Positions 5,109 through 32,849 of a stretch of DNA of 45,318 nucleotides are shown piece by piece. The notes beneath the pieces were generated by a model. The model was given only the letters and a program-made list of their open reading frames with translations, made no database searches and was not told where the DNA came from. The stretch comes from Candidatus Scatousia excrementigallinarum. Its GTDB lineage: Bacteria > Cyanobacteriota > Vampirovibrionia > Gastranaerophilales > Gastranaerophilaceae. Position 1 is the stretch's first letter. Each line of letters opens with the position of its first letter. A program made the translations under genes and the position numbers. The DNA lies in assembly GCA_018711035.1 (NCBI GenBank), contig DVIU01000135.1, positions 1-45,318 on the forward strand, written 5' to 3'.

Positions 5109-6056
5109 TTACCAGTAAGCCATTGTCCCGTGTTCAAAAAGCTCGACTCCTTCCGGAGTTTCTTCTTTCGATGGCCTTGTCCAGTATTCATTGTAATAGT
5201 TTTTACCTAACCAGCTATCCCATCTGGAACCCTTTATTCCAAAAAGGAGCTGAGTTGCCCCCCCCATATGAATGGCTTTTTTACCAAGGCTTTTGACATA
5301 TTGAGCAAGAAACATTCCATACGCACCGGCACCTATTATCGCTATATCAAAATTAATTTTCTTTATATCGGCTTTCATTGCAGCAAGTGCCTCAAACCAG
5401 GTTTTGTATTCTAAATATTTCTTTGCATGTCCTATTCCCTGAACAGGTATACATGTTATTAATTCAAATTCAGGCAAAACATCCGGATTTTTAAATAGTT
5501 TATCACGTTTTTCGTACTGCTTTTTGATAGTTTCATCAAACGGATTAATCACTAGAACCTTTTTACCTTCTAAAGCCTTTGACCACGGATTTTTATAACA
5601 AAACGGGTATGAAAAAGCATTAATATCCACAATATCAGCGTGCTGCAAATACAGGCCGACAACTTTACGTTCGTATCTCTCAGGGCGGCTCGCTAACACA
5701 TCAACATCCTTTAAAATTTCAAATTGTTCACAAGCAAACCTTGTCATATTATAATCATCTATCGGAAAAAATCCTGCCGTATTTGAAAACAAATCTTTGT
5801 GCCATTTATTATATTTAGGATTACAGCCCTTCGCGTTCAACATCATACGCATTGTATCAAGCTCAAGAGTACCAAATCTGCAAATCATTTCAGGTTTATC
5901 CGATAATATATGATTGGCTACTATCTCATTAGCATCTTCTTGAGTATAAACAAATTTATTACCGGCAGTCAAGCTATTTACAACTTTATGCGGATCAATC
6001 AATTCGCGCTTGCCTCTATAAACATCTAAAAGATACTGAACACACTCAAATCTCAT
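5109..6056 (-). CDS. Putative glycosyltransferase (GT-D / DUF1792-like) containing a G8 tract
   Basis: 315-aa ORF. RFGTLELD resembles the RFGDGE motif. Gly-rich IAIIGAGAYGMFLAQYVKSLGKKAIHMGGA resembles the GT-D nucleotide-sugar pocket. Function is low-certainty; the CDS call itself is solid. Confidence 0.6.
   Translation of the reverse strand: MRFECVQYLLDVYRGKRELIDPHKVVNSLTAGNKFVYTQEDANEIVANHILSDKPEMICRFGTLELDTMRMMLNAKGCNPKYNKWHKDLFSNTAGFFPIDDYNMTRFACEQFEILKDVDVLASRPERYERKVVGLYLQHADIVDINAFSYPFCYKNPWSKALEGKKVLVINPFDETIKKQYEKRDKLFKNPDVLPEFELITCIPVQGIGHAKKYLEYKTWFEALAAMKADIKKINFDIAIIGAGAYGMFLAQYVKSLGKKAIHMGGATQLLFGIKGSRWDSWLGKNYYNEYWTRPSKEETPEGVELFEHGTMAYW
5258..5265 (-). repeat. Homopolymeric G8 (C8 on + strand) inside the 315-aa ORF
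   Basis: Reads cat atg ggg ggg gca on the coding strand (H-M-G-G-A, about residues 263-267). One of only two G/C runs of 8 or more found in the window. Confidence 0.95.
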
Positions 6057-9106: not shown

Positions 9107-10948
9107 ATGGCAAACAACAACAGAAATTTTAAAGAACAGCAACAGGGTAAAAAAATTGTTATTGCAGAAAGAGACAATATCGCAGCAGTTTTGGAAAACG
9201 GAAAAGTAACTGACTTTTTTATTCACAGAGGTGATGTTTTATTAGGTGACGTTTACCTTGCCACGGTAGATAATATTCTACCTAGTATAGACGCGGCATT
9301 TGTTAACGTCGGCACTGATAAAATGGGCTTTTTGCACGCTCAGGACGTTATGGGTAAAGGAACCTTAAAAGAAAAACTTAAACCAAAACAAAAATTGATT
9401 GTTCAGGTTGTAAAAGAACCTACAGGCCACAAAGGGCCTAGGGTTACAACGGAAATAAGCCTTCCGGGCAGGTTTCTTGTTCTTATGCCTTACGAACCGG
9501 GCGTAAGCGTAAGTAAAAAAATCGAAAATTCCAGAGAACGCGCAAGACTAAAAGCTATTATGAATTTAATTAAACCGGTAGGCGTCGGTGTAATCATAAG
9601 AACAGAAGCTGAAGGACAATCGGAAGCAGATATTCAGGAAGATTTGGAAATACTTCTCGAAAAATGGAACAATATTATCACTTCCGCAGAAACGCTCAAC
9701 CCTCCTAATTTGATTTACAGAGATCAGGACTTGCTATATAGAGTTATACGTGAAGCCTGCACAGAAGATGTTAAAGAAATCGTTGTTGATACGGCTTTTG
9801 CATTAAGCAGAGTTCAAAACATTCTTCAGAACTGGCATATGAATAAAAATATCGAAGTAACCCTTTATAAAGGCACAGAACCGCTATTAATCGCGTATGA
9901 TATTCATAAAGAAATTAAAGCAGCATTAAATGTTAAGGTGAATATGCCGTCGGGCGGCTATCTGTTTATACAGCAGACAGAAGCACTGACCGTCATTGAC
10001 GTTAACAGCGGTAAATTCACAAGTTCATCCACTCAAGATGAAACGATTTTGAAAACAAATATCGAAGCTGTGCATGAAATTGCACGCCAGCTCCGCCTTA
10101 GAAATATAGGCGGAATGATTATCGTTGACTTTATTGATATGATGTCCCGTGCAGATAAACTTGCAATGCTTGAAGAACTTGAAATTGCACTTGAACCGGA
10201 TAAGGCCAAACCACAGGTCGGCCAGCTTTCGGATTTAGGTCTGGTAGAACTTACCCGCCACCGTCAGGGACAGTCTTTATCTGAAATATTTACTAAAAAA
10301 TGTCCTCACTGTCAGGGCAGCGGCTGTTCGGTAATTGACTTCAATTTTGCAACTCCGACAGCAGAAGGTGAATATAGAGCGAAAGCAGCAAAATTAAAAT
10401 TACCGGTAAATAACTTCAAGAAAAACAATAATAATAAACAAAACAATAAACCTCAGGTTGAAGAAACTCCTGCCGAAATTCAGGAACAAATTCCGACTCC
10501 TGAAATTCAGGTTGAAAACCCTTCAGTCATTGCCGTTCAAGAGGTTGAAAATACAGATAAAAAACGTAAAGGCAGAAAAACACGTTTTGACAAAAAGAAA
10601 ACGGAACAGGTTGAAACACCTCTTGCTGTAACAGATGAAGTTCATACCGCAGAAACCGTTTTAAAAGTTAACGAAGAAATAAAACCGGAAATTGCAGAAG
10701 AAGTACTTGAAGCAAAATCTACAAAGACCGAAAAACCTCTGGAAGTACAGGCAGAAGCAGAACCTGTTGCAGAGCAGCCGGCTGCGACAGAGGAATCTGC
10801 GGAAACCCAATCGGCAGAACAGCCTTCTGAGGAAGAAGTAAAAGAGGAAAAACCTAAACGTACAAGAAGACCTAACAGAGGAACTTCTAAGCGTACAAGA
10901 ACAAAGAAAACTAAAAGCGAGGAAAAAGTTGAAACTGAAGAATCTTAG
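9107..10948 (+). CDS. rne: Ribonuclease E/G family endoribonuclease with a long low-complexity C-terminal tail
   Basis: S1 domain (LLGDVYLATVDNILPSIDAAFVNVGTDKMGFLH), catalytic core (ALTVIDVNSGKF, GGMIIVDFIDM) and Zn-link CPHCQGSG. About 190 aa of E/K/P/T-rich tail ends in an R/K-rich stretch. ATG 9107 (AAGGA 7 nt upstream) is preferred over TTG 9101. Confidence 0.9.
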   Translation: MANNNRNFKEQQQGKKIVIAERDNIAAVLENGKVTDFFIHRGDVLLGDVYLATVDNILPSIDAAFVNVGTDKMGFLHAQDVMGKGTLKEKLKPKQKLIVQVVKEPTGHKGPRVTTEISLPGRFLVLMPYEPGVSVSKKIENSRERARLKAIMNLIKPVGVGVIIRTEAEGQSEADIQEDLEILLEKWNNIITSAETLNPPNLIYRDQDLLYRVIREACTEDVKEIVVDTAFALSRVQNILQNWHMNKNIEVTLYKGTEPLLIAYDIHKEIKAALNVKVNMPSGGYLFIQQTEALTVIDVNSGKFTSSSTQDETILKTNIEAVHEIARQLRLRNIGGMIIVDFIDMMSRADKLAMLEELEIALEPDKAKPQVGQLSDLGLVELTRHRQGQSLSEIFTKKCPHCQGSGCSVIDFNFATPTAEGEYRAKAAKLKLPVNNFKKNNNNKQNNKPQVEETPAEIQEQIPTPEIQVENPSVIAVQEVENTDKKRKGRKTRFDKKKTEQVETPLAVTDEVHTAETVLKVNEEIKPEIAEEVLEAKSTKTEKPLEVQAEAEPVAEQPAATEESAETQSAEQPSEEEVKEEKPKRTRRPNRGTSKRTRTKKTKSEEKVETEES

Positions 10949-29162: not shown

Positions 29163-29394
29163 TTTTATCCTTTTCGATAATCTGATTTTTACTGATAACG
29201 AGGCTGAAATCAACTCTCATGCCATATTAATTTTACTTTAAAGTAAAATAAAAAACTTTAATTATTGAAAAAAATTTACTTAATATTTCTTAATATTTAA
29301 CCGGTTAACTGTTGAAAAAAAATATGTCAGCATTTTACTATAAAGGCAGAAGATAATTCTTTCTGCAGCATGGTTAATAGAAAAGGGGTATTAA

Positions 29395-32300
29395 ATGCGT
29401 ATTACTTCGGTCATACCGCAGGTTTATGCGGGGAATCTAAAAAGACAACAAACAACACAATTAACACACCAAAATCCTAACTTAATTAATGAAAAGCCGA
29501 TAAATTCGTTGAATTTTGTAGCACCGGCTTATATTGAGCATCTAGCTCAAAGGGGGGGGGTAGGATTCGTAAATTTAACCTTCACCGGTGCAGATAAAAA
29601 TATTAACCAGTTTGCTTCTTATTCACCCGAAAACAAACGTTATGGACTAAACTCATATAACTACGGCGGTCTCGGAGTTGTTGCTCAGGAAGCCCCGAAT
29701 AACTGGCGTATCAAAGAAAAAGCCGACGTCAGAGACTTTTCACCTTATCATTCATACGGAACGACCAAAGGCGGAGTCATGGTCGCAGAAGTTACAAGAG
29801 ATGAAAAGGGCAAAATAACAGAACGACACCTGCCGCAAAATAAATTCCATCAGGCTGCGCAAAACGAATCTCTAGAAGAGGTTGCCAAAAGGCTGAACTT
29901 AAAACCTGAAAATTTGGAATATGTTATTCAAATTGAACCTGATACAAAAGGTAAATCAGAGTTTGTTGTATTGAAAGATGCAAAAGCTTCAGGCTCTTTC
30001 AAACGTGCTTCAGATAATGCCGTTGATGAATTAAAAGAAATTAATTATAGATTCTTTGGAACAGATGAAATCAGCGACCCTGTTTTTATTGCACAAAAAA
30101 AGCTTGAAGCTAAAACAAGAGACGAAATTATTGAACCTCGCCTCGCTAAAATTAAAGAACAGATTGAAGCAACTTATCACTATGAACAAAAACTGAAAGA
30201 ATTAAATGAAGCTGATAATCAAAGTTTCAATAAAGACCCTTATTCTTTTGAACCGAACCCTAAGATTACAGAGATTGAAGAAGAATATAACAAAAAAATA
30301 GCCGAAGGCATAAAATCTATTGAAAAAGAAGTAGATGATGAATTCTATAAAACACTTGAAACTCCGGAATATAAGGATAAACTTGCAAAAATAACCGAAA
30401 CGGCGGCAGAAGCCGTACCGGAGCGAAATTATGTATATTTTGTACATACTGAAGATCTGGCAAGATTTGAAAATGCATACGGTATTGGAGCAAAAGGTAC
30501 AGGAGCTTACGGTGCATACGGAACCTATGGAACCTACGGTACCTATGGAACTTACGGAACTGAGGGAAGCGAAGACGGCATAAAACACGTAAGTACAAAC
30601 GTATTCTATGCAGATAATAACCGTGCATTTGTAGAAGGTCTGCCTAAATTAAACACCGCAGAACATGGCAATTTTAACCCTGCCAACCTGTGGCTGCATG
30701 ACCGTCCGGCATTTATGATTATGCACCATATAGCAAATAAATCTGCCGCAGGAGATGAATATTATAACGGCGGAGTAAAAGCGCACAGCTCATTCCATAA
30801 TCCGGGCAGAGACTATCAGGGCTGGATGAACAACCCGTTTGAATTCTTCCGCCTTGTTGCAAACGAACAGGACGTTGAAGAAATAAAAAATCACCCTCAG
30901 CTTAAAGAAATAAAATATATAGAGAAAAACTGGCATAAATTCGGCCCTAAAGATGGTGAAGAATTAACACCTGAGGCAAAATTCGTAAAAGAAATTTTTG
31001 ATCCTTATTTCAAAAACTTTATGGACGATTTTAATACATATAATATTTCCATGACACCGGTTGCAGGTGTAAAAACAAACGGTAAAAATTTTACTGCCGG
31101 TACCGTATCAATGAACTACGGTAAAGAAATGAAAAATCCGGATACTCCTGATATTGCACTCGGTATGACCAAAAAACTTTCAGAAATCGAAACTCACGAT
31201 ATCACAAACGGAAGTACTCCTGCAAACCTTCAACTCGATAATCCAAAAGCTAACTTCCACAGAAAAGGGCATCCGAATCTGCTTACAAAATTAAAACGCG
31301 GATTTACAACATATAATTACGAATATGAATTAGATAAAGACGGTAAAATTGTTAAAGATAATATTGACGAAGTATTGAAAGCAAAAGAAAGCAATACCAA
31401 ATGGTTATTAAATTTGATTGACCATGCTTATCAGGCAGGCGGACAAAGCGGAGTTACAAAGGTCTTTTGCAGTGACGCGCAGATAAGCAACGGCGCAACA
31501 GTTATCGGACACTTATCCGGCTTTAAAAAGGGCGATAATTTATTTATGGGCTGGGGGCGTCCGGATCCGCAGAAAAATTATCCGGCCTCAATAGGAGCAA
31601 TTAAAGAATTTATTGAATTTTTAAAAGATAAAAATATTCCCGATGAATTAAAAACCCGTACAAAAGGTATTTTTGGCGCAGGAGTTTGGGACGCAAGTGC
31701 AGAAGAATATAAATGGATAAAAGACTTAATTGAAGTACAGCTTCCTAAAATTGATAACGGTAAATATGCCGGAAATATTATGTACGTTAATAACTTCTTC
31801 CCTAATAGGCTTGTAGGGTGCGCAACATGGACGTTGTTCTCATCCAGATTTGAACCGTGCGGTATAACGCCGCTTGAGTCTTTTGCGTCAGCCACACCTT
31901 GTATTTCAATAAATACTGGCGGGGCACCTGATTTTATTAATAAAATGAGAGGCCTGCTTACTAAACATCCGTATCTGTTGAAACGTGAAAGACTTGAAGA
32001 AATATTAGGTAAAAAACTTGATTTCAACGGAGATGCAGCACATGATGCAAAAGTTCTTGATGGTGCACGCTGGGAAAATGCTACATTTGAACTTAAAGAT
32101 TGTATCATAATGGCAATGCAGTCTAATGATGAAGAATTCAAAAAAGCAATTCATGACCAGCTCAGTGAAGAATTAAAGAATCAGGAAGTAATCCCATACA
32201 AACAAATGGCTCAAAACGCAGGATTACAGCGTGATAAAATGGATTGGCACCAGAACGCCGATTATAATAACGGAAAAACAGCAAATGAACGTTACATGAA

Positions 32301-32577
32301 TGAAGTTTTTGAAAGAAATAAAGGCATAGAAGCCAGAAACAAAAATCCGATGAAGCGTTTTGTAGGAAAATTCGGAACTGCAACTGAAAAAATTGTAATT
32401 CAGGCAGAAGAAGCTGCCCAATCCGCTTCAACATCAAAAGTCGGAAAAATTGTAGCATTCAGTATTCTAGGTGCAGCAGCCATAGCTTCAGGCGGATACT
32501 ACTTCTTCCAGAAACGCCAGAAAAAGCTCGGTTTTAACAAACCTGTTGAAGAAAAATCATTTACAAAAATCGGATAA
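29395..32577 (+). CDS. Giant GT5 (glycogen/starch-synthase-like) glycosyltransferase homologue with large insertions and a C-terminal membrane anchor
   Basis: 1060-aa ORF. GT5/GT-B motifs in order: YGGLGVV, LWLHDRPAF, SFHNPGRDYQGW, ITNGSTPANL, GWGRPDPQKNYP, SSRFEPCGITPLESFASATPCISINTGGAPDF. A K/E-rich insertion of ~250 aa lies between the first two motifs. C-terminal TM IVAFSILGAAAIASGGYYFF is followed by a basic tail. Confidence 0.7.
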   Translation: MRITSVIPQVYAGNLKRQQTTQLTHQNPNLINEKPINSLNFVAPAYIEHLAQRGGVGFVNLTFTGADKNINQFASYSPENKRYGLNSYNYGGLGVVAQEAPNNWRIKEKADVRDFSPYHSYGTTKGGVMVAEVTRDEKGKITERHLPQNKFHQAAQNESLEEVAKRLNLKPENLEYVIQIEPDTKGKSEFVVLKDAKASGSFKRASDNAVDELKEINYRFFGTDEISDPVFIAQKKLEAKTRDEIIEPRLAKIKEQIEATYHYEQKLKELNEADNQSFNKDPYSFEPNPKITEIEEEYNKKIAEGIKSIEKEVDDEFYKTLETPEYKDKLAKITETAAEAVPERNYVYFVHTEDLARFENAYGIGAKGTGAYGAYGTYGTYGTYGTYGTEGSEDGIKHVSTNVFYADNNRAFVEGLPKLNTAEHGNFNPANLWLHDRPAFMIMHHIANKSAAGDEYYNGGVKAHSSFHNPGRDYQGWMNNPFEFFRLVANEQDVEEIKNHPQLKEIKYIEKNWHKFGPKDGEELTPEAKFVKEIFDPYFKNFMDDFNTYNISMTPVAGVKTNGKNFTAGTVSMNYGKEMKNPDTPDIALGMTKKLSEIETHDITNGSTPANLQLDNPKANFHRKGHPNLLTKLKRGFTTYNYEYELDKDGKIVKDNIDEVLKAKESNTKWLLNLIDHAYQAGGQSGVTKVFCSDAQISNGATVIGHLSGFKKGDNLFMGWGRPDPQKNYPASIGAIKEFIEFLKDKNIPDELKTRTKGIFGAGVWDASAEEYKWIKDLIEVQLPKIDNGKYAGNIMYVNNFFPNRLVGCATWTLFSSRFEPCGITPLESFASATPCISINTGGAPDFINKMRGLLTKHPYLLKRERLEEILGKKLDFNGDAAHDAKVLDGARWENATFELKDCIIMAMQSNDEEFKKAIHDQLSEELKNQEVIPYKQMAQNAGLQRDKMDWHQNADYNNGKTANERYMNEVFERNKGIEARNKNPMKRFVGKFGTATEKIVIQAEEAAQSASTSKVGKIVAFSILGAAAIASGGYYFFQKRQKKLGFNKPVEEKSFTKIG
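29552..29560 (+). repeat. Homopolymeric G9 inside the 1060-aa ORF (codons 53-56)
   Basis: Reads caa agg ggg ggg gta (Q-R-G-G-V). It is the longest G/C homopolymer in the window. Confidence 0.95.
30502..30561 (+). repeat. 9-nt tandem repeat, ~6.7 copies, encoding (G-A/T-Y)n
   Basis: ggagcttac ggtgcatac ggaacctat ggaacctac ggtacctat ggaacttac ggaact encodes GAYGAYGTYGTYGTYGTYGT. Confidence 0.9.
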
Positions 32578-32815: not shown

Positions 32816-32849
32816 AATTTTTATGTTATTATTTATTTAGTGAGGAAAA

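Follow-up and report, generated by a model that had tools for sequence, protein, structure and literature searches.

The locus and its features

The stretch of DNA described here, called the window, is positions 1-45,318 (forward strand) of contig DVIU01000135.1 (assembly GCA_018711035.1) from Candidatus Scatousia excrementigallinarum, a member of the Gastranaerophilales; it comprises 45,318 bases with 36.0% G+C. Our subject is a run of nine G residues (G9) at positions 29552-29560, within 'gct caa AGG GGG GGG GTA gga', which lies near the 5' end of a large open reading frame (ORF) for a glycosyltransferase (GT)-like protein. We consider that the G9 is probably a maintained, hypermutable simple sequence repeat (SSR), that is, a contingency locus, which gates a large membrane-anchored GT resembling starch and glycogen synthases. 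The features at the tract are as follows.

29383-29388, plus strand: Shine-Dalgarno-like AAGGGG, 6 nt 5' of the ATG at 29395.
29395-32577, plus strand: ORF for a GT-B glycosyltransferase-like protein of 1060 amino acids (aa), putatively gated by the tract.
29470-29589, plus strand: linker-coding region with the tract (residues ~26-65), poorly conserved in the alignment and predicted to be disordered by its predicted local distance difference test (pLDDT) values.
29552-29560, plus strand: G9 homopolymer, candidate slipped-strand switch; codons AGG GGG GGG GTA, read as R53, G54, G55 and V56.
29561-29563, plus strand: TAG, read in frame after the loss of one G (55-aa product).
29595-29597, plus strand: TAA, read in frame after the gain of one G (67-aa product).
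29779-29781, plus strand: ATG of Met129, by in-silico variants the first in-frame start 3' of the tract, past the GGLGVV motif.

The annotated start of the GT gene is sound, as the N-terminus MR[IV]xS[VI]MPQ is kept across the family and AAGGGG stands upstream of it. The tract stretch is the sole N-terminal part that varies in length and sequence in the family alignment, and residues 26-57 and 59-65, tract codons included, have a pLDDT below 50 in the AlphaFold2 model.

Effect of a change in tract length

The consequences of slippage can be read from in-silico variants. With eight Gs the ribosome would meet the TAG at 29561-29563 immediately (55 aa); with ten it would read 12 wrong-frame codons and then the TAA at 29595-29597 (67 aa), whereas seven Gs give 66 aa and eleven give 56 aa. 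In all of the variants the downstream frame holds no ATG, GTG or TTG before the ATG at 29779, so the gene is OFF at every tract length other than 9 modulo 3. An upstream out-of-frame start that would provide a second ON length was also sought, and there is none; in the variants, 29538 and 29546 are the only points at which the downstream frame opens.

The first-pass annotation of this DNA had placed the G9 53 codons into the GT-like ORF, upstream of a YGGLGVV motif at residues 90-96, and had predicted a stop after either single-base change, with the next in-frame Met at residue 129, beyond that first motif. Each of these statements agrees with the sequence and its variants. What lies here is an uninterrupted run of at least 8, proximal to the 5' end of its ORF, in which a frame-shifting change of length would abolish the product with no rescue from an alternative start.

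The mechanism that we propose is simple. With nine Gs the frame would be open and the full enzyme made; replication slippage of plus or minus one or two Gs would end translation after 55-67 residues. As there would be no restart ahead of the catalytic N-terminal Rossmann domain, the enzyme and its glucan or glycoconjugate would be lost, until a second slippage brought the enzyme back. Because the tract falls in a predicted disordered N-terminal linker, its translation as Gly-Gly would be irrelevant, and selection would then act on the DNA run itself.

Rarity of the run in the window

Counted over the whole window, the G or C runs of at least 6 are the G9 and a C8 at 5258-5265, with none of 6 or 7; the first-pass observation that these two are the only G/C runs of at least 8 was correct. 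Codon usage in the window genes does not favor such a run: GGG supplies 13% of Gly codons, AGG 10% of Arg codons, and CCC 6% of Pro codons, and AGG-GGG-GGG is therefore three minority codons in succession. When codons were shuffled 3000 times among synonymous positions within each window gene, the probability of at least one G/C run of at least 9 was 0.010, and that of at least two runs of at least 8 was 0.006.

Two technical explanations were tried and set aside. An assembly artefact, or a poly-G artefact of two-colour chemistry, is ruled out by a tract that is internal, in frame, and recovered alike by SOAPdenovo-era CAG, SPAdes, MEGAHIT, and Logan assemblies. Systematic under-calling of G11 as G10 is ruled out in that runs of G8, G9, G11, G12, G13, and G15 have all been assembled, with G11 alleles recovered for both the GT gene and a prepilin-type gene.

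The orthologous linker in related species

In 16 GTDB species, the N-terminal linker of the orthologous GT contains a G:C run, of G9, G10, C10, or G12. The ortholog in locus L020, with 81% protein identity to that of the window, has a G9 at codon 53, as the window does. At codon 35 the run is G10 in L027 and L032 and G9 in L033, all encoding 'NNGGGA'. The run is C10, encoding 'VPPPR', in L023, L031, L041, L042, L045, L048, L050, L060, and L089, and in a distant clade it is G12 (L081) or G9 (L083 and L084) at codon 12-13. Except for that of L033, all of these tracts are in frame. That one and the same disordered spot is read as Gly or as Pro, depending on the species, argues that selection acts on the DNA run and not on the peptide.

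Tract-bearing species are interleaved with tract-less sisters in a neighbor-joining tree. In addition, the C10 version is broken in L028 (at ~10106-10115), where 'ccc cAc ccc c' encodes VPHPR, and interrupted synonymously in L044, where 'ccc ccA ccc c' (in the context 'ccc cca ccc cga') keeps VPPPR. To judge by their sequences, both would be "locked" alleles of the sort typical of contingency loci.

Contigs that start or end exactly at the ortholog tract were also seen. That of L033 begins (positions 1-12) with 'aac' and then the G9, and another such case is the protein P0108, which begins at 'GGASFPGV'; such contig breaks suggest assembly breakage from length heterogeneity.

Length polymorphism in two sister species

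For two of the tract-bearing species we examined the protein clusters formed at 90% identity. Most members are full length, and some begin just past the tract; these lie on long contigs. In the species with a C tract the ON length is C10 (e.g., P0123, on 58 contigs), and shorter alleles occur as C9 in L090 and L092 and as C8 in L091 and L093. The alignment of L090 to L031 covers 5,965 columns with 0 mismatches, and its single gap is the tract. In the species with a G tract the ON length is G10; the run is G9 in L094 and G11 in L095 and L097-L102, the tract being the only gap between L032 and each of L095 and L097-L100. A separate pattern scan of a metagenome collection returned G10 three times and G11 once, the latter on a contig of 121 kb.

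These OFF alleles span several strain backgrounds, with 93.8-99.98% identity to the ON reference, and more than one event must therefore have produced them. Among the tract-less clusters examined, no member was 30-80 residues shorter at the N-terminus; compared with these, N-terminally shortened calls are confined to the two tract-bearing clusters. In two relatives of the window species, then, the ortholog tract is polymorphic in length, with a frameshift.

G/C runs across the Gastranaerophilales

The related loci (L015-L089) amount to 1.34 Mb with 34.7% G+C. It is important to remember that they were chosen around one gene, so that any functional enrichment among them is not genome-wide. Their G/C runs of 5, 6, 7, 8, and 9 number 255, 22, 1, 1, and 7, and those of 10, 11, 12, 13, and 15 number 47, 2, 7, 2, and 1. 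Extrapolated from a geometric fit to lengths 3-6, runs of at least 9 should number about 0.08, but the loci hold 66, so that over-representation relative to composition and codon usage is found in the relatives as well as in the window (P = 0.010). The distribution is bimodal. Of the 67 runs of at least 8, 47 are exactly 10 long, a mode that holds regardless of the reading-frame requirement, whereas A/T runs decay smoothly.

Prepilin-type genes hold 32 of these 67 runs and GT genes of the window type hold 16. Other carriers are a GT2 glycosyltransferase gene (227 aa; L028, L031, L045, and L060), with an in-frame G10 at codon 114; a polysaccharide pyruvyl transferase gene (L016, 19031-19043), with a G13 seven codons before its end; an acyltransferase_3 gene (L069, 19216-19227), with a G12; and a gene for a YadA-head/Peptidase_S74 protein with a prepilin motif (L089, 2357-2369), with a C13. 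The run census that the first-pass annotation had suggested thus finds runs of at least 9 in vast excess in the related genomes, concentrated in glycan-modifying and pilin-like genes. These other carriers are typical surface genes and belong to classes that are commonly phase variable.

The prepilin-type genes (Pfam N_methyl plus DUF6613) have the run within the region that codes for the leader, which is followed by G/FTLAEVLITLGIIG. In about 30 of them a G10 or C10 lies 19-84 nt 3' of a canonical Shine-Dalgarno sequence and ATG (e.g., L022 8404-8413, L024 11695-11704, L027 20003-20012, L035 18681-18690, and L089 14032-14041). In essentially all, the frame set by that ATG is one G short of the long frame, so that the ON state needs 11; tract lengths are mostly 10 and otherwise 9, 12, or 13. 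L107 (1285-1295), however, has a G11 and with it an in-frame prepilin-type allele behind a canonical Shine-Dalgarno sequence and ATG. With G10 OFF and this G11 ON, both states of the prepilin-type gene occur at the DNA level. Many paralogs with short classical leaders (MKKG/FTLAEV) have no tract. In L083, a run of N stands inside a prepilin tract.

By analogy, the tract repertoire across the order would be that seen in the phasomes of Campylobacter and Neisseria, and its sharp regularity at 10 nt could come from a particular mutational bias or from an RNA-level component. A tentative and somewhat doubtful extension is that the Gastranaerophilales as a whole have a regular "phasome," with about one G:C run per 20 kb at exactly 10 nt, in which housekeeping-like surface enzymes including the GT are ON by default and dozens of N_methyl plus DUF6613 prepilin paralogs are OFF by default (one G short), the G9 of the window being the local version. 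If so, one type of +1 event, through slippage of replication or possibly of RNA polymerase, would sample pilin variants, while -1 and +1 events would silence glycan enzymes. So sharp a set-point, unlike the broad length distributions of Campylobacter and Neisseria, would then point to a specific bias in mutation or repair, or to a mechanism that acts on RNA.

The tract in the species of the window

All of the evidence discussed here comes from consensus assemblies. About 20 contigs, drawn from independent ENA, Logan, and NCBI assemblies, carry a gene call for the identical 1060-aa protein. Among the departures from G9, the 1512-bp Logan contig L013 is identical to the window apart from the tract, where two added bases (G10 and then TT) shift the frame. 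L014, from a strain with 96.8% identity, has a G8; this contig carries five single-base deletions in 3.5 kb, and we therefore discount its G8 as a likely read error. A look-up of the predicted stubs returned a 56-aa '...RGGG' stub, which corresponds to the +2 change of L013, and a 55-aa variant, which corresponds to L014.

Two further searches were negative. A scan of metagenome_contigs for the two flanks with a variable gap found none, the collection apparently lacking the window species, and a search for split GT calls by way of the neighboring nucleoside transporter gene returned only intact 1060-aa calls.

A second tract in the window

The other long run of the window lies in a gene for a GT-D-like protein.

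5258-5265, minus strand: C8, which is a G8 on the sense strand; codons M264-G-G-A of a 315-aa GT-D-like protein (ORF 5109-6056).

The public Logan contig L103, 99.7% identical to the window, has a G7 allele in which the tract is the only indel. This allele gives a 273-aa product ending '...IHMGGQLSSFLE*' (P0102). The G8 is proximal to the 3' end, so a frameshift would remove the last 50 residues and not abolish the GT-D-like protein.

The surroundings of the GT gene

Strains of the window species that are at least 99.8% identical through the GT gene diverge abruptly about 240 bp past its stop (window ~32817-32834), which places the GT gene at a strain-variable junction. The gene that follows the GT is not the same in all of them: in the window it codes for an ArsP_2 permease, in L008 and L010 for a TPR protein, and in L009 for a dTDP-sugar isomerase.

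Upstream of the GT gene, a promoter-like site at 29312-29341 (TTGAAA, 18 nt, TACTAT) contains an A8 run (29315-29322) that falls in its -35 hexamer and spacer. The site is the sole sigma-70-like match upstream of the gene, and such a match is no better than chance (1 vs. 2.0 expected from shuffles). The run is A7 in L012, an otherwise clean strain contig, and in L014, for a spacer of 17 nt; as read from these contigs, it could be a second, transcriptional, length-variable site.

The GT protein

Sequence models recognize little of the 1060-aa protein. Pfam gives only a weak match to Glycos_transf_1 (PF00534) at residues 768-856 (28.2 bits), and PF13692 falls below the cut-off. PF08323, the Glyco_transf_5 N-terminal model, does not match, so that membership of GT5 is not seen at the sequence level; among the homologs it is recorded for a single distant one, P0098. 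A profile of 33 family members matches PDB entries in the C-terminal Rossmann half only (E ~1e-5), and these entries are starch and glycogen synthases, sucrose-phosphate-synthase-like enzymes, and GT4 enzymes.

The AlphaFold2 model has a mean pLDDT of 82 and a predicted TM-score (pTM) of 0.80, and its best Foldseek matches are GBSS and glycogen synthases (E ~6e-12, TMt 0.65-0.70, 11-12% identity), followed by glycogen phosphorylases. The modelled fold is thus the two-Rossmann GT-B fold, nearest to that of glycogen and starch synthases. Three further features of the protein can be placed on the window.

29662-29682, plus strand: YGGLGVV, residues 90-96, the counterpart of the GT5 K-x-G-G-L nucleotide-sugar loop; the family keeps G91, G92, and V96 throughout.
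31852-31878, plus strand: EPCGITPLE, residues 820-828, the E-x7-E motif of retaining GT-B enzymes, with invariant residues E820, G823, and E828.
32449-32508, plus strand: C-terminal hydrophobic segment, residues 1019-1038 (IVAFSILGAAAIASGGYYFF), with basic residues after it; putative tail anchor, from sequence.

The first motif keeps the G-G-L of the K-x-G-G-L loop, with Tyr/Asn in place of Lys-x. The hydrophobic segment at residues 1019-1038 is present in the family consensus too and may serve as a tail anchor. Extra elements are a helical or coiled-coil insertion at ~229-336, a disordered loop of YG repeats at 364-397, and a helical C-terminal extension.

Set beside GlgA and GBSS (GT5), the protein has the GT-B fold, the G-G-L loop (YGGLGVV), and the C-terminal E-x7-E in common, with 6gnf, 3vue, 6gng, and 2qzs as Foldseek matches at TMt 0.48-0.70. 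It differs in sharing only 11-15% identity with them and in having ~500 extra residues, an N-terminal extension of 65 residues, and a putative hydrophobic anchor at the C-terminus. To our knowledge, classical GlgA is not phase variable. On the model, the window protein is probably a divergent, tail-anchored, GT5-like retaining synthase. The first-pass label of surface-glycan gene is no more than plausible. The fold is nearest to starch and glycogen synthases (GT5), with a putative C-terminal membrane anchor.

A 9-nt tandem repeat, TACGGAACC, present in 4.9 copies at window 30517-30560, encodes a Tyr-Gly-Thr repeat, AYGAYGTYGTYGTYGTYGT, at residues 371-389. It falls in the loop at 364-397 that AlphaFold leaves disordered, and a change in copy number would keep the frame.

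All 99 homologs of the protein, and all 75 loci from GTDB species representatives, belong to the Gastranaerophilales (gut Melainabacteria/Vampirovibrionia). The first-pass guess of a Melainabacteria-like genome, made without knowledge of the source, was therefore right for every relative. Please note that contigs with this Gastranaerophilales-specific gene also stand under unrelated record names (L027, L035, L083, L047, and L054), namely Clostridium sp. CAG:967 and CAG:768, Brachyspira sp. CAG:484, and uncultured Muribaculaceae, which are likely legacy or binning mislabels.

Weighing the explanations

Several observations weigh against a working switch in the window. The tract is G9 in 12 of the 12 loci read, among them strains with 99.8-99.99% identity whose gene content differs downstream, and G9, the ON length, is the consensus in every good assembly read of the window species; at the assembly level, therefore, switching in this species is not demonstrated. 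The only clean variant is the odd +2 change of L013, and the sole G8 lies on the error-ridden L014. The predicted OFF-state product from Met129 (932 aa) is not on record, and neither is the 887-aa product of a TTG start. Among the relatives, L015 and L021, the closest tract-less orthologs (79-81% identity), read 'aaa aat aga gtg' in place of the tract and show that it is dispensable, and the OFF alleles of the sister species could be lineage-fixed pseudogenes instead of reversible states. Finally, a role for the GT product at the cell surface is putative, the protein having a GT-B synthase fold and a predicted tail anchor, and the within-population distribution of tract lengths is outside the reach of consensus assemblies.

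What the first-pass annotation had said of slipped-strand contingency accordingly stands on the tracts of the relatives, their polymorphism, and the excess of runs, but not on length polymorphism in the window species, where this is nearly absent. The comparison of orthologs was also divided. It returned G:C runs in 16 species, yet L015 and L021 are tract-less and L044 spells the same PPPR with an interruption, an outcome that agrees in part with what the annotation had named as evidence against a switch. These tract-less and interrupted close orthologs look like secondary losses or "locked" alleles.

A rival explanation is a G9 that is a relic or is effectively locked ON, whether left by a phase-variable ancestor or arisen in the clade of the window and L020. 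In this species it would then be just an unusual spelling of Arg-Gly-Gly that does not act as a switch, either because the tract is short and stable enough or because the ON state is so strongly selected. This would suit the uniform G9 in the 12 loci, the full-length calls on some 20 contigs, and the strains that differ elsewhere and are unchanged at the tract, as well as a length one unit below the G10/C10 mode of the order and the questionable standing of the OFF-like contigs. We nevertheless hold it to be unlikely. The tracts of the sister species are only one unit longer and yet vary between assemblies, and even the shorter G8 of the window has a clean G7 allele. The tract has stayed uninterrupted across the divergence of the window and L020 (81% protein identity) despite its rare codons, and minority states are masked in consensus assemblies. 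Programmed recoding, by transcriptional slippage or ribosomal frameshifting, is very improbable: here the tract would tune the yield of full-length protein and there would be no heritable switch. The clustering of run lengths at exactly 10, about the length of the RNA-DNA hybrid, would fit, as would the ~30 prepilin-type genes that are always one G short, a regularity not expected of random phase states. The GT tracts, however, are already in frame and do not need recoding, length alleles exist in DNA (C8, C9, and C10 or G9, G10, and G11 for the GT; G11 for the prepilin-type gene of L107), and efficient transcriptional slippage is documented mainly at A/T runs. To a meaningless run of codons, or an error of sequencing or assembly, we give hardly any credence. 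One G9 per 45 kb could be a coincidence at P ~0.01, and homopolymers are prone to sequencing error, as in L014; but different assemblers and projects give the identical G9, homologous tracts occur in 16 species with the excess of long runs in the relatives, and the alternation of Gly and Pro at one site argues for selection at the level of DNA.

A contingency locus thus remains the explanation that we prefer for the G9. We infer that the window species itself would switch at an appreciable rate, that its switching would be reversible and adaptive, and that the enzyme product, and with it the phenotype switched, would matter at the cell surface or in interaction with host or phage.

Comparison with known systems

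Phase variation through homopolymers is textbook knowledge for pathogens of the genera Campylobacter, Helicobacter, Neisseria, and Haemophilus. In Campylobacter jejuni, a low-GC inhabitant of the host gut, intragenic G:C runs of 8-13 (mode 9-10) lie mostly near the 5' end of genes for glycosyltransferases, acyltransferases, and surface structures, and a change of plus or minus one turns them ON or OFF. Alleles differ among populations, and interrupted "locked" alleles occur. The locus described here resembles the C. jejuni poly-G loci (transferases of capsule, lipooligosaccharide, and flagellar glycosylation) in belonging to a low-GC gut bacterium and in its 5'-proximal runs, ON/OFF by frameshift, and locked alleles. 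It differs in that the Gastranaerophilales are uncultured commensals of another phylum, belonging to the non-photosynthetic, Cyanobacteria-related Vampirovibrionia/Melainabacteria, that the gated enzyme is a (putatively) tail-anchored GT5-like synthase of 1060 aa without a characterized homolog, and that lengths are much sharper here (47 of 67 at exactly 10). PMC6321876 and PMC8437040 deal with the C. jejuni poly-G loci.

Neisseria offers parallels for both kinds of gene. In pilC, which codes for a pilus protein, a poly-G in the part that encodes the leader gates translation. In pgtA, according to PMC2193922, a poly-G run inside a glycosyltransferase ORF does so. The Gastranaerophilales share with pgtA and pilC a run internal to a GT gene, tracts in prepilin leaders (in the relatives), and interrupted, non-variable alleles in some strains. 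Unlike those of Neisseria, the pilin-like genes here form a large paralogous family (N_methyl plus DUF6613), nearly all at G10 and so one short.

Significance

Homopolymer contingency loci are apparently undescribed in this phylum, and the present one is functionally of the Campylobacter/Neisseria type. The first-pass annotation had thought the arrangement new for such genomes, and in the full-text literature searched we likewise found no paper on phase variation, homopolymers, or pilin frameshifts in Melainabacteria or Gastranaerophilales. The new aspects are the lineage, the gated 1060-aa GT5-like synthase, and the regularity of the system, with its 10-nt mode, enzymes ON by default, and pilin-like genes OFF by default. 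This regularity raises the mechanistic question of what keeps the tracts so close to 10 nt.

We recommend caution in annotation: in these metagenome-assembled genomes, a gene recorded as "frameshifted," "partial," or shortened at the N-terminus would in many cases be a phase state and not an error. The ratios of ON to OFF can be read from existing metagenomic reads, which would provide a testable handle on the ecology of the Gastranaerophilales. The same device would now be found in uncultured gut commensals of humans and animals that form a non-photosynthetic sister lineage of the Cyanobacteria. The implication is one of stochastic diversification of the cell envelope, involving the GT5-like synthase, the GT2 enzyme, acyl and pyruvyl transferases, and pilin-like proteins, presumably under pressure from phages or the host immune system.

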